DNA of 30,513 bases from a virus. Taxonomy: Duplodnaviria > Heunggongvirae > Uroviricota > Caudoviricetes. The translations under genes were made by a program, and so were the position numbers. Positions 17,751 to 30,086 of this stretch are shown one piece after another (the first letter of the stretch is position 1; every line of letters starts with the position of its first letter). Location of the stretch: IMG/VR virus record IMGVR_UViG_2778261535_000002; one strand, 5' to 3'. The notes under the pieces are model-generated. The model was not told the origin of the DNA, searched no databases, and worked only from the letters and a program-made list of their open reading frames with translations.

Positions 17751-18005
17751 TTATTTCAGGCATTGCGTCCTGATGTACTCCTGCATTTCGATAGTCGCGT
17801 TAGCATCAGCAAGCTCCTTTGTATATCTGGCGTCGAGTTCTGCTACATCATGTTGACGCTTCTGCATGTCAGCGATTGTGGATGTGGCCTTATCGCGCTG
17901 CTCTTTGTAGGTAATGGCGTTATCACGGTAATGATTAACAGCCCATGACAGGCAGACGATGATGCAGATAACCAGAGCGGAGATAATCGCGGTTACTCTG
18001 CTCAT
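17751..18005 (-). CDS. Rz: i-spanin Rz, naturally shortened (84 aa versus 153 aa in lambda)
   Basis: N-terminus [34 protein letters not shown] matches recalled lambda Rz; C-terminus ends ...RTQCLK with the conserved Cys; the central part is missing. Confidence 0.8.
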
Positions 18006-18478
18006 ACCTCAATCTCTCTGACCATTCCGCCAGCTTCTTTGAATTTTGCAATCAGGTTGTCAGCCTTATGCTCGAACTGACCATAACCAGCGCCCGGCAG
18101 TGAAGCCCAGATATTGCTGCAACGGTCGATTGCCTGACGAATATCACCGCGGTCAATCATCGGTAAAGCGCCACGCTCTTTAATCTGCTGCAATGCCACA
18201 GCGTCCTGACTTTTGGGAGAGAAGTCTTTCAGGCCAAGCTGCTTACGATAGGCATCCCACCAACGGGAAAGAAGCTGGTAACGTCCGGCTGCTGTTGATT
18301 TGAGTTTTGGGTTTAGCGTGACAAGTTTGCGAGGGTGATCGGAGTAATCAGTGAATAGCTCTCCGCCTACAATGACGTCATAACCATGATTTCTGGTTTT
18401 CTGACGTCCGTTATCTGTTCCCTCTGACCACGCCAGCATATCGAGGAACGCCTTACGTTGATTATTGATTTCCACCAT
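18002..18478 (-). CDS. R: endolysin R (lytic transglycosylase)
   Basis: 158 aa ORF starting [35 protein letters not shown], recalled lambda R. Confidence 0.9.
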
Positions 18479-18785
18479 CTTCTACTCCGGCTTTTTTAGC
18501 AGCGAAGCGTTTGATAAGCGAACCTATCGAGTCAGTACCGATGTAGCCGATGAACACGCTCGTTATATAAGCGAGATTGCTACTTAGTCCGGCGAAGTCG
18601 AGAAGGTCACGAATGAACCAGGCGATAATGGCGCACATCGTTGCGTCGATTACTGTTTTTGTAAACGCACCGCCATTATATCTGCCACGAAGGTACGCCA
18701 TTGCAAACGCAAGGATTGCCCCGATGCCTTGTTCCTTTGCCGCGAGAATGGCGGCTAACAGGTCATGTTTTTCTGGCATCTTCAT
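18462..18785 (-). CDS. S: holin/antiholin S (S107 start, with the S105 start at Met3)
   Basis: 107 aa ORF starting [22 protein letters not shown], recalled lambda S, including the MKM dual-start motif. Confidence 0.9.
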
Positions 18786-18902
18786 GTCTTACCCCCAATA
18801 AGGGGATTTGCTCTATTTAATTAGGAATAAGGTCGATTACTGATAGAACAAATCCAGGCTACTGTGTTTAGTAATCAGATTTGTTCGTGACCGATATGCA
18901 CT

Positions 18903-18940
18903 GGCAAAACGGCAGGAGGTTGTTAGCGCAACCTCATGCC
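18903..18940 (-). terminator. candidate intrinsic terminator or attenuator hairpin upstream of S
   Basis: - strand GGCA-t-GAGGTTG-CGCTAA-CAACCTC-c-TGCC followed by GTTTTGCC. Confidence 0.4.
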
Positions 18941-19027
18941 ACCCGCTTTCACGAAGGTCATGTGTAGAAGGCCGCAGCGTAACTATCACTGATGAATTCA
19001 GGATAGCCAGTGGCTACGGCTCAGTTA

Positions 19028-19103
19028 TGGTGCTGGTTAACGGACTTGAACCGCTACCCATTCGCTTACAAGGCGACTGCTCTACCATTGGAGCTAAACC
19101 AGC
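19028..19103 (-). tRNA. tRNA-Thr, anticodon UGU, with encoded CCA
   Basis: Hand-folded cloverleaf: 7/7 acceptor pairs (GCTGGTT/AACCAGC), 4 bp D stem, anticodon loop CTTGTAA, T arm AGCGG-TTCAAGT-CCGTT, discriminator A, CCA. Confidence 0.7.
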
Positions 19104-19108
19104 ATGTT

Positions 19109-19183
19109 TGGCGGGACAGCGTGGACTCGAACCACGATAAGAAGGTTAACAGCCTTCCGTAATGACCTTTATACGACTGACCC
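19109..19183 (-). tRNA. tRNA-like gene, probably tRNA-Asn (anticodon GUU), slightly atypical
   Basis: Acceptor stem 6/7 paired, D stem 3 bp plus one mismatch with GG in the loop, perfect anticodon stem GAAGG/CCTTC with loop CTGTTAA, T arm CGTGG-TTCGAGT-CCACG, discriminator G, CCA. Confidence 0.5.
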
Positions 19184-19184
19184 A

Positions 19185-19229
19185 AATAAAAAAAGCCACC
19201 GTTGCAACTTAAGAGTCACTAACGGCAGC
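19185..19229 (-). terminator. hairpin plus T7 run immediately downstream of the Q-like gene (tR'-like candidate)
   Basis: - strand CTGCCGTT ... AACGGTGG stem followed by CTTTTTTTATTTG, directly abutting the 5' end of the tRNA-like gene. Confidence 0.4.
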
Positions 19230-19246
19230 TTACCTTCTAATTATGG

Positions 19247-19765
19247 CTAAATGGATAATTGCATGTCAAGGCTTTTAACAGCAACATGCTTAACTTTCTC
19301 AACACGTTTACGCATTTTGAAAGCATTTTGCATTGGCTGGTACAAAACAAATAACGACGCTTTCAGGATGTCGTCAATTTCGTTTCTACAGGTTGCCAGT
19401 GAAGGTTTTCTCCATCCCTCGCCACCACGTCCACACATCTTGCGTGGCTTTGCAGTCGCGTGATAGTAGGATGCAATTGCTCGCTTAGATGAACCATGAG
19501 CGTAGTAGCTGAGGAGGATGCCAAAGGCTTTCTTGTCAATGCACATGACGGAATCGACGACCTGAGAAATCAACATTCCATCATCATCATTGCACATTGG
19601 CCTTGTCATAACTCTTCCCGGCTCTACGCTCTCCATGAACTTCGCTATTACGCTGCTCATACGCTTTTCCAGACGACCTGAATAAACCCATGCGCCCCAC
19701 AGTTCAAGCCAGCCATTCAGCCACTCATGCTGTTCTTTGGTGAGGTTTAGTTCTCTTATGCCCAC
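19247..19765 (-). CDS. putative late-gene antiterminator Q, not lambda type
   Basis: 172 aa ORF in the Q slot between ninI and the lysis cassette; sequence is unlike recalled lambda Q (207 aa). Confidence 0.55.
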
Positions 19766-29849: not shown

Positions 29850-29921
29850 GCGCGGCGTTACCGCATACCAATAACGCTTCACTCGAGGCGTTTTTCGTTA
29901 TGTATAAATAAGGAGCACACC

Positions 29922-30086
29922 ATGCAATATGCCATTGCAGGGTGGCCTGTTGCTGGCTGCCCTTCCGAATCTTTACTTGAACGAATCACCCGTAAATTAC
30001 GTGACGGATGGAAACGCCTTATCGACATACTTAATCAGCCAGGAGTCCCAAAAAATGGATCAAACACTTATGGCTATCCAGACTAA
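29922..30086 (+). CDS. cIII: CIII (FtsH inhibitor)
   Basis: 54 aa reading frame from the ATG at 29922, translating [54 protein letters not shown], recalled lambda CIII. Confidence 0.85.
   Translation: MQYAIAGWPVAGCPSESLLERITRKLRDGWKRLIDILNQPGVPKNGSNTYGYPD

Follow-up and report, generated by a model that had tools for sequence, protein, structure and literature searches.

A known tRNA-Asn/tRNA-Thr cassette in the late leader of a lambda-like prophage is a candidate counter-defense module

Two tRNA genes lie between Q and S

The DNA analyzed in this work, referred to as the window below, is a stretch of 30,513 nucleotides of a viral genome. Exactly 2 tRNA genes, tRNA-Thr(tgt) and tRNA-Asn(gtt), were called by ARAGORN in this 30.5-kb window, and both were also recovered with the Rfam tRNA model RF00005 at scores of 61.5 bits (E 3e-11) and 55.3 bits (E 2e-9), respectively, relative to a gathering score of 29. 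A preceding sequence-only reading of the same DNA had proposed two adjacent minus-strand tRNA genes between Q and S and had left room for predictors to score both of them below threshold; the genes are where it had placed them, and both were called. On the minus strand, tRNA-Asn(GUU) comes first (19109..19183; 75 nt), followed by a 5-nt spacer read from the sequence as AACAU (19104..19108; AACAT or AATAT depending on the allele) and by tRNA-Thr(UGU) (19028..19103; 76 nt), which is the phage 21 gene known as “tRNA-Thr21.”

The threonine tRNA is as well formed as had been described, with 7 of 7 acceptor pairs and an encoded CCA end. Its anticodon arm (GUCGC/GCGAA) contains a U28-A42 pair, while G27 and A43 are unpaired. 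The asparagine tRNA likewise encodes its CCA end and has a G73 discriminator, a full 5-bp anticodon stem (GAAGG/CCUUC), a single acceptor mismatch (U4xU69), and a D stem of 3 bp (U13xU22). These irregularities had been noticed correctly in the sequence-only reading, but its description of the gene as “tRNA-like” undersells a sequence that scores 55.3 bits and whose mismatches are constant in 11 alleles. The two genes encode genuine tRNAs, as opposed to being pseudogenes or cloverleaves formed by chance. Because tRNA-Thr and tRNA-Asn share only 55/78 and 48/78 positions with thrU and asnT of Escherichia coli K-12, respectively, a recent capture of host tRNA genes can be ruled out. The anticodon loops (CUUGUAA for Thr and CUGUUAA for Asn) are the same as those of the host, which rules out that the phage tRNAs evade anticodon-loop nucleases through loop mutations.

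The tRNA genes are embedded in the late leader

Both genes have the orientation of the late operon and are flanked by Q and S. The late antiterminator gene Q (19247..19765, minus strand) encodes a protein of 172 amino acids of the Q21 family, specifically the Sf6 gp59 allele (Pfam PF06530 Phage_antitermQ, E 1e-25). Its end overlaps the predicted late promoter pR' (19240..19269, minus strand; TTGACA, 18-nt spacer, CATAAT), which matches the consensus at 11 of 12 positions, is the sole promoter-like site in 18700-19400, and is positionally equivalent to the annotated site of phage 21 (-35, Q-binding element [QBE], -10, and start) as well as to pR' of Sf6. Judging by this homology, transcription probably starts at about 19233.

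The late leader that follows (19184..19231, minus strand) contains a pause element and the intrinsic terminator tR', recognized by its fold and by homology. The sequence-only reading had seen a hairpin with a run of seven T directly abutting the 5' end of the upstream tRNA; this element is real (U7 at 19194-19188), folds at -21.5 kcal/mol (z -4.6), and corresponds to tR'. It is 100% identical to the terminator feature of phage 21 (L085 1365-1412), and the equivalent element is annotated as tR' in Sf6 and HK75. A terminator scan of the region returned zero sites and carries no weight because it missed even tR' itself, so that the terminator was judged by folding and homology instead. Merely 4 nt (AUUU) separate the U7 run from G1 of tRNA-Asn. 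This leaves no room for a promoter between tR' and tRNA-Asn, so the layout implies that the tRNAs would be made from pR' by read-through of tR'. The same arrangement is found in the phage 21 and Sf6 records, and the earlier impression that the tRNAs are embedded in the late leader thus agrees with annotated relatives.

Downstream of tRNA-Thr, a 60-nt hairpin-forming linker (18966..19025, minus strand; defined by alignment and fold) is common to the window, HK446, lambda, and phage 21 regardless of cargo or lysis cassette, and also to HK75 and Sf6; it is part of a strongly structured stretch of 138 nt (z -4.2). A second hairpin, identified by folding at 18905..18940 on the minus strand, is followed by GUUUUG and conserved in lambda and HK446. 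This is the hairpin with a T-run that had been placed just before S: It is present at 18940-18905, but its U-run is weak (4 U) and about 120 nt separate it from the downstream start codon of S. The first late gene past the tRNAs is S itself (18462..18785, minus strand), an open reading frame for a lambda-type holin/antiholin with the dual start MKM..., whose equivalents are annotated as holin genes in Sf6, HK75, and HK446.

A phage 21/Sf6-type module in a lambda-like mosaic

The segment comprising both tRNAs, the spacer, and tR' (19020-19232) is 100.0% identical to phage 21 over 213 nt, 100% identical to BTP1, and 99.6% and 99.4% identical to Sf6 and HK446, respectively. Over the whole Q-to-S interval (641 bp), identity to Sf6 is 98.4%, and the Sf6 tRNAs bear the annotation “similar to phage 21.” Among 5,426 complete E. 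coli genomes, 202 contain 80% or more of the module, and PGAP annotates tRNA-Thr and tRNA-Asn in them at this place. The tandem of Asn and Thr genes was described in SfI with reference to Sf6, ST64T, PS3, and phage 21 (PMC3636060) and again in work on phages L and ST64T (PMC8022706), while the phage 21 genome paper reports 2 tRNA genes (PMC9119081). The pair is therefore the long-known phage 21/Sf6-type tRNA-Asn/tRNA-Thr cassette and not a new feature. The sequence-only reading had rightly noted that the anticodons differ from the Ile/Arg/Arg set of Stx phages; they had seemed unusual only for want of the phage 21/Sf6 precedent, and in fact form a classic pair that is 100% identical to phage 21.

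Positions 1-25000 of the window are about 97% identical to lambda over 85% of their length, and the prophage is therefore a lambda-like mosaic with an acquired phage 21/Sf6-type late-control module. The match to phage 21 ends at the annotated transcription start, and the Q proteins of the two phages share 85% identity, with differences mostly in the C-terminal half. For annotation, these results settle both genes as genuine tRNAs and place the prophage as a lambda-like mosaic with a phage 21/Sf6-type module.

The cassette occupies a variable slot with fixed edges

An alignment of lambda, HK446, HK75, Sf6, and phage 21 defined the edges of the cassette. Its left edge is the T-run of the terminator, both after a Q21-type leader and after the lambda-type leader of HK446, and its right edge is the 60-nt linker (19025-18966). 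We surveyed the content of this slot in 80 IMG/VR loci with a Q at least 98% identical, among which 45 contain Asn and Thr, 30 contain no tRNA, and 5 contain variant sets. Since 30 of 80 near-identical Q modules do without any tRNA, the cassette is dispensable. The variants were rejected as independent tRNA sets because they turned out to be point-mutated Asn genes and recombinant chimeras. A U35A change in the Asn gene accounts for the apparent “Ile(gat)”, the loci with Asn and Gly (L018, L031, and L077) contain, like JLK-2012, a chimera of a Thr21 5' half and a thrU-like 3' half followed by a glyT-like Gly gene, and L072 carries an Asn/Gly fusion across a shared GGTTCGA. Recombination therefore happens inside these tRNA genes. 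The cassette as a whole is found next to unrelated late-gene sets of lambda type, P22 type, and HK97 type.

In lambda and HK75, the filler after tR' measures roughly 170-217 nt. For the cargo of slots without tRNAs, Rfam returned nothing but a weak tmRNA-end-like match in a 65-kb search. In a narrow search, one class of this cargo matched the type I hammerhead ribozyme at 24.7 bits (E 8e-4), which is under the gathering score of 34, and the catalytic core of this hammerhead-like element, located at L080 3104-3150, is complete by eye. We found no accessible paper describing it.

Both tRNAs look functional

The identity, position, and conservation of the two genes are direct observations. Read from the sequence, tRNA-Thr carries G1-C72, C2-G71, G35, U36, and A73-CCA, and tRNA-Asn carries G34, U35, U36, and G73-CCA. 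These include what we take to be the identity elements of the threonine synthetase (G1-C72, C2-G71, G35, and U36) and of the asparagine synthetase (G34, U35, U36, and G73). Across alleles, double-sided changes occur at 6 pairs of the tRNA-Thr cloverleaf vs 0.8 in shuffles (0 of 500 shuffles reach the observed value) and at 3 pairs of the tRNA-Asn cloverleaf vs 0.3 (2 of 500), with counts driven by few independent events, chiefly the divergent copies of a Klebsiella phage and JLK-2012. Positions 27:43 of Thr are unpaired in 13 of 13 distinct alleles, as are the alignment columns 4:68 and 13:22 of Asn in 11 of 11. With mismatches constant in 11 of 11 Asn alleles and compensatory changes at other pairs, the apparent stem defects therefore look like conserved design features and not like decay, and both genes appear functional by these sequence criteria. 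No accessible paper with expression data for the tRNAs of the Asn/Thr cassette was found in the literature.

A probable role in counter-defense against tRNA-cleaving immunity

P2-OLD is a nuclease encoded by the P2 prophage and responsible for classical P2-lambda interference. It kills by cutting tRNA-ThrU of the host within a paired CNG motif, after C28 and after C40, with Lys(UUU), Asn(GUU), and Val(UAC) as slower substrates (PMC12445682). The phage 21 tRNA-Thr(UGU) protected cells from OLD, and each of the four validated hits of the respective screen increased viability at least 1000-fold (PMC12445682). Resistance of tRNA-Thr21 to cleavage was traced to C28U/G42A together with a shortened anticodon stem, and expression from a plasmid restores ACA decoding (PMC12445682). 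E. coli has a single tRNA-Thr(UGU) gene of low abundance (PMC12445682). A second study reported that Thr(UGU) of HK446 allows HK97, HK542, and Bas34 to plate again on OLD+ cells, while a plasmid-borne viral Thr(UGU) gave no rescue of lambda itself (bioRxiv 10.64898/2026.07.10.737580). HK446 evades OLD and the tRNA-less HK75 is sensitive, a contrast confounded by the Oad2 inhibitor of HK446 (bioRxiv 10.64898/2026.07.10.737580).

The tRNA-Thr of the window is the phage 21 allele, and its U28-A42 pair and unpaired G27xA43 are the published resistance features. At positions 28-30/40-42 of the CNG motif, it reads UCG/CGA vs CUG/CAG in the host. Since the window thus carries the exact Thr allele that was shown to defeat P2-OLD, this prophage is probably equipped with a ready-made, though partial, countermeasure to a defense that is widespread and encoded by prophages; the resistance of this allele and its rescue of cells are taken from the literature cited above. 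Points counted against counter-defense include the failure to rescue lambda together with the largely lambda-like nature of this prophage, the Oad2 inhibitor of HK446, and the dispensability of the cassette.

We propose that two functional phage tRNA genes were inserted immediately after the late terminator tR' without a promoter of their own. RNA polymerase starting at pR' would pass tR', efficiently once Q is present, and thereby transcribe the tRNAs; leaky read-through of tR' in the lysogen may also occur. RNase P and 3' trimming would then free the tRNAs from the 5' end of the late transcript, with CCA already encoded. When an abortive-infection tRNase such as OLD of a P2 prophage acts, these spare tRNAs would keep ACA, and probably also AAC/AAU, readable: OLD would destroy the one tRNA-Thr(UGU) of the host and, at a slower rate, its tRNA-Asn(GUU), and the phage copies would serve as nuclease-resistant replacements. 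Overall, we put the probability at roughly 0.6 that this is a phage 21/Sf6-type cassette expressed by read-through from pR' whose main role is counter-defense by nuclease-resistant replacement tRNAs.

Alternative explanations for the cassette

The traditional explanation for phage tRNAs would be that they boost translation of phage genes using ACA and AAC/AAU beyond the host's tRNA supply, and the sequence-only reading had proposed a comparison of codon usage as a check. We compared 23 minus-strand late ORFs (5,514 codons) with 59 annotated K-12 genes as a host reference and obtained little support, with ACA making up 15.7% of Thr codons in late genes vs 16.0% in this host sample (Fisher p 1.0). 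The late genes show no ACA excess and therefore no special demand for this codon in the co-transcribed genes. For Asn, the share of AAC is slightly elevated (61.9% vs 53.0%, p 0.03; a weak effect), and ACA accounts for 29.5% of Thr codons in the non-late genes of the window, but these ACA-rich genes belong to the early set, whose expression precedes the action of Q. In published work, ACA makes up 17.3% of Thr codons in SfI vs 7.1% in its host, though the authors found no Asn bias (PMC3636060), while the capsid gene of phage L uses AAC in 24 of 25 Asn codons (PMC8022706) and the one E. coli gene for tRNA-Thr(UGU) is of low abundance (PMC12445682). The cassette also recombines among lambda-type, P22-type, and HK97-type late-gene sets and therefore cannot be tuned to any one of them. 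Codon supplementation is hence poorly supported here and an unlikely main role, a weaker rival to counter-defense. A speculative rival of another kind, prompted by the sub-threshold hammerhead-like element, is that RNAs in the slot self-process and sever the pR'/tR' leader from the late mRNA as a natural insulator, with the tRNAs acting as RNase P cleavage signals. The location of the cassette at the very start of the late transcript, the other structured RNAs in the slot of tRNA-less relatives (including the hammerhead-like class), and the conserved hairpin directly after the slot in all variants would fit such a role. However, the hammerhead match is sub-threshold and absent from the larger search, lambda's own slot filler shows no significant structure (z -1.5), and a processing signal alone needs no intact anticodons, identity elements, encoded CCA, or two tRNAs. 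Given that tRNA-Thr21 moreover acts in trans in translation (PMC12445682), we consider cis-processing quite improbable as the reason for the cassette.

Even less probable is that the tRNAs are neutral hitch-hikers or recombination joints, either aiding mosaic exchange through tRNA homology or simply traveling with the Q module. The chimeric genes (L018, L031, L077, and JLK-2012, as well as L072) do mark recombination inside tRNAs, some alleles are damaged (anticodon GUU to GAU, U33C, and G73U), and the cassette is missing from 30 of 80 modules. Yet most alleles are intact, compensatory substitutions keep both cloverleaves (0/500 and 2/500 shuffles), the pairing of Thr and Asn recurs with unrelated Asn genes in distant lineages, and the Thr allele was shown to be functional (PMC12445682). 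The tRNAs could also compensate for a host tRNA gene broken by prophage integration, as was suggested for HK446 (bioRxiv 10.64898/2026.07.10.737580). Many temperate phages integrate into tRNA genes and bring a replacement 3' part, but the tRNA genes of the window are complete and lie in the late leader near the lysis genes and not by int/attP (the int/att region is outside the window), and E. coli has four asn genes. The integration sites of lambda (gal-bio), phage 21 (icd), and Sf6 (argW) are none of them thrU or an asn gene. Phage L restores thrW via a separate tRNA-like attP segment and carries late-leader tRNAs too (PMC8022706), and we regard integration repair as highly implausible.

The tRNA-Asn partner as a possible second component

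The always-accompanying tRNA-Asn is a possible second component of counter-defense. The paired CNG motif of the host genes asnT-W (CGG/CCG) is lost on both strands of the phage tRNA-Asn (AAG/CUU) with the 5-bp stem kept. A scan for the Thr21-type anticodon arm yielded hits in 12 species genomes and in 120 viral contigs. An Asn(GUU) gene belongs to the same cluster in 8 of the 9 Thr acceptor types, and these include Pseudomonas lambdoid prophages in which Thr is followed by Asn at a distance of 3 nt, between the NinG gene plus an ORF of unknown function and a lambda-family holin gene. The Asn partners fall into at least 6 unrelated sequence types, 5 of 6 without a paired CNG. This recurrence of Thr and Asn with unrelated Asn genes suggests, at the level of sequence comparison, that the pair may be a functional unit.

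The CNG motif is kept in the Asn gene of the Klebsiella phage and in the phage Gly(UCC) gene of the same slot. A change of CNG alone gave tRNA-ThrU no protection (PMC12445682), and the tRNAs listed as depleted by OLD more than 2-fold do not include Asn (bioRxiv 10.64898/2026.07.10.737580). The Thr gene of HK446 was called a “single” tRNA (bioRxiv 10.64898/2026.07.10.737580), although ARAGORN finds an Asn gene beside it. A literature search retrieved no paper testing a phage tRNA-Asn. We therefore offer only tentatively, as an idea that is somewhat more doubtful than promising, that tRNA-Asn(GUU) could be a second nuclease-resistant spare and that Thr and Asn might form a conserved two-tRNA kit against OLD-like or other tRNases, repeatedly assembled at the start of the late transcript in lambdoid phages of both Enterobacteriaceae and Pseudomonas, with the slot of other relatives holding self-processing RNAs that include a hammerhead-like ribozyme. 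If tRNA-Asn were the missing second component, this would go some way toward explaining the partial rescue obtained with Thr alone in published assays.

Comparison with known systems

Among the closest relatives of the cassette is that of phage 21 (tRNA-Asn CPT_21_64 and tRNA-Thr CPT_21_65; OL657228), which shares its order, its place directly after tR', and the strand of the late operon. The curated phage 21 record lists -35, Q-binding element, -10, start, sigma-dependent pause element, terminator, tRNA-Asn at the next base, and tRNA-Thr. Upstream of the start, the window differs by another Q allele (85% amino acid identity) and another promoter/QBE, and downstream it has a lambda-type S/R cassette whereas phage 21 encodes a pinholin and a SAR endolysin. 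Sf6 shows the same feature order as the window (gene 59, pR', tR', tRNA-Asn, tRNA-Thr, and holin), but Sf6, BTP1, SPN9CC, HF4s, and CurroJimenez are P22-like podoviruses while the module of the window sits in a lambda-like siphovirus backbone.

Stx phages of the 933W type carry the ileZ-argN-argO cluster between Q and stx, which likewise places tRNA genes as cargo after pR'/tR' in the late leader of a lambdoid phage. The sequences of this cluster and its anticodons, CAU-derived for Ile and of the UCU/UCG type for Arg, are different from those of the window with its GUU and UGU anticodons. Some Stx2 phages match the window only at tR' and the first 24 nt of tRNA-Asn, and therefore have a truncated copy. 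Homologous Asn and/or Thr genes occupy the same Q-to-lysis slot in phages L/ST64T (Asn and “Leu-UAA”), JLK-2012 (Asn-Thr-Gly), and the Klebsiella phage ST101-KPC2phi6.1 (Asn-Phe-Thr-Arg), which differ by additional or substituted tRNA partners; neither the “Leu” of phage L nor the chimeric Thr of JLK-2012 was called by ARAGORN.

Among the OLD-resistant rescue tRNAs, tRNA-Thr21, tRNA-Thr6, and the Thr tRNAs of HK446, T4, and Bas32/33 all have the same anticodon as tRNA-Thr of the window. The studies of these rescue tRNAs used plasmid-borne copies, whereas the gene of the window sits in its native late leader beside tRNA-Asn.

Variation of the tRNA slot among related prophages

The slot between the tR' terminator and the lysis genes carries no tRNA in HK75 (L002, 1749-1960), lambda (L090, 385-560) and 30 IMG/VR loci among L003-L082, where it is 161-555 nt long. 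These tRNA-less variants have a common frame of GCACAACAGGTAAGAGCATT ... AGTGCTCTT(A/T)(T/C)CGTTGTG ... CAGCACAACCCAA, of which the first two pieces are mutually complementary and enclose variable inserts. The 3' end of the HK75-type slot resembles a tRNA 3' half with T-arm and acceptor-like segments (tmRNA-end match, 20 bits), and the lambda version folds no more strongly than shuffled sequences (z -1.5).

Some tRNA-less relatives with near-identical Q genes (L080, L056, L057 and L061) have the slot, corresponding to 19026-19187 of the window, filled by an insert of around 303 nt. Positions 3104-3150 of L080 match the type I hammerhead model of Rfam (Hammerhead_1) with 24.7 bits (E 8e-4 in a 381-nt search), below the gathering score of 34. 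As judged by eye, this hammerhead-like element has a complete core comprising CUGACGA, GAAA, the GUC cleavage triplet and three stems; we found no description of the insert in the accessible literature.

Recombined and apparently truncated tRNA genes

Several loci (L101 of Atlantibacter subterraneus, 1834-1908; L018, L031, L077 and L088 of JLK-2012) encode chimeric tRNAs that are marks of recombination within tRNA genes. The chimeric tRNA-Asn combines the usual GGGTCAG/CTGTCCC acceptor, including U4xU69, with a different body, and the chimeric tRNA-Thr joins a 5' half from the phage 21 tRNA-Thr(UGU) allele to a thrU-like 3' half. Its anticodon stem is shrunk to 3 bp, and the 3' CNG, part of the paired motif at the cut sites of the P2 prophage nuclease OLD, is changed to CAU. 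In the Stx2/Stx2c phages 1717, 2851, Nil2 and WGPS4/6 (hits H112-H122), the match is limited to tR' and the first 24 nt of tRNA-Asn (19160-19232 of the window), as if the cassette had been cut down to a remnant there. In the record of Nil2, this site bears the annotation of an IS-like insertion.

Surroundings of the cassette and comparison with other lambdoid phages

Directly after the slot lies a hairpin-forming linker of 60 nt (18966-19025, minus strand; ACTGAGCCGTAGCCACTGGCTATCC...GCTGCGGCCTTCT), which is kept in lambda, HK446, HK75, Sf6 and phage 21, also across differing lysis cassettes. It could serve as a boundary for recombination or as an element at the 5' end of an RNA. Further along, the Rz i-spanin frame (17751-18005, minus strand) encodes only 84 aa and, compared to Sf6 and HK75, has suffered an in-frame deletion of 183 bp that removed most of the embedded o-spanin gene Rz1. 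A functional spanin is probably missing from this prophage. The early-left genes are of lambda type on the plus strand, as confirmed by an Rfam match to the cIII thermoregulator Lambda_thermo (29909-29967, plus strand; 88.5 bits). The gam/recombination region, site of the OLD trigger, lies past the window end.

Lambdoid prophages of Pseudomonas spp. and an uncultured gammaproteobacterium (L091, L094, L096, L100 and L102) also carry a tRNA-Thr(UGU)/tRNA-Asn(GUU) pair. In the Pseudomonas prophages, the two genes are 3 nt apart, flanked by NinG and an unknown ORF on one side and a lambda-family holin gene on the other; the ORF of ~200 aa that takes the place of Q matches no Pfam family. Their tRNA-Thr is identical to the phage 21 allele in the D and anticodon arms but matches it at only 57-58 of 76 positions overall, and their tRNA-Asn sequence is unrelated.

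Across Q and the late promoter pR' (19233-19765, minus strand, against 1414-1944 of L085, phage 21), identity between the window and phage 21 stops at the annotated transcription start of the latter. The two Q proteins are 85% identical, with the changes in the C-terminal half, and the -35/-10 spacer TGCAATTATCCATTTAGC is unlike the Q-binding elements ATTGAGCA and AATGAGCA of phage 21. Together, these differences in Q and spacer imply a predicted specificity of Q for its binding element that is of the Sf6 type, unlike that of phage 21.
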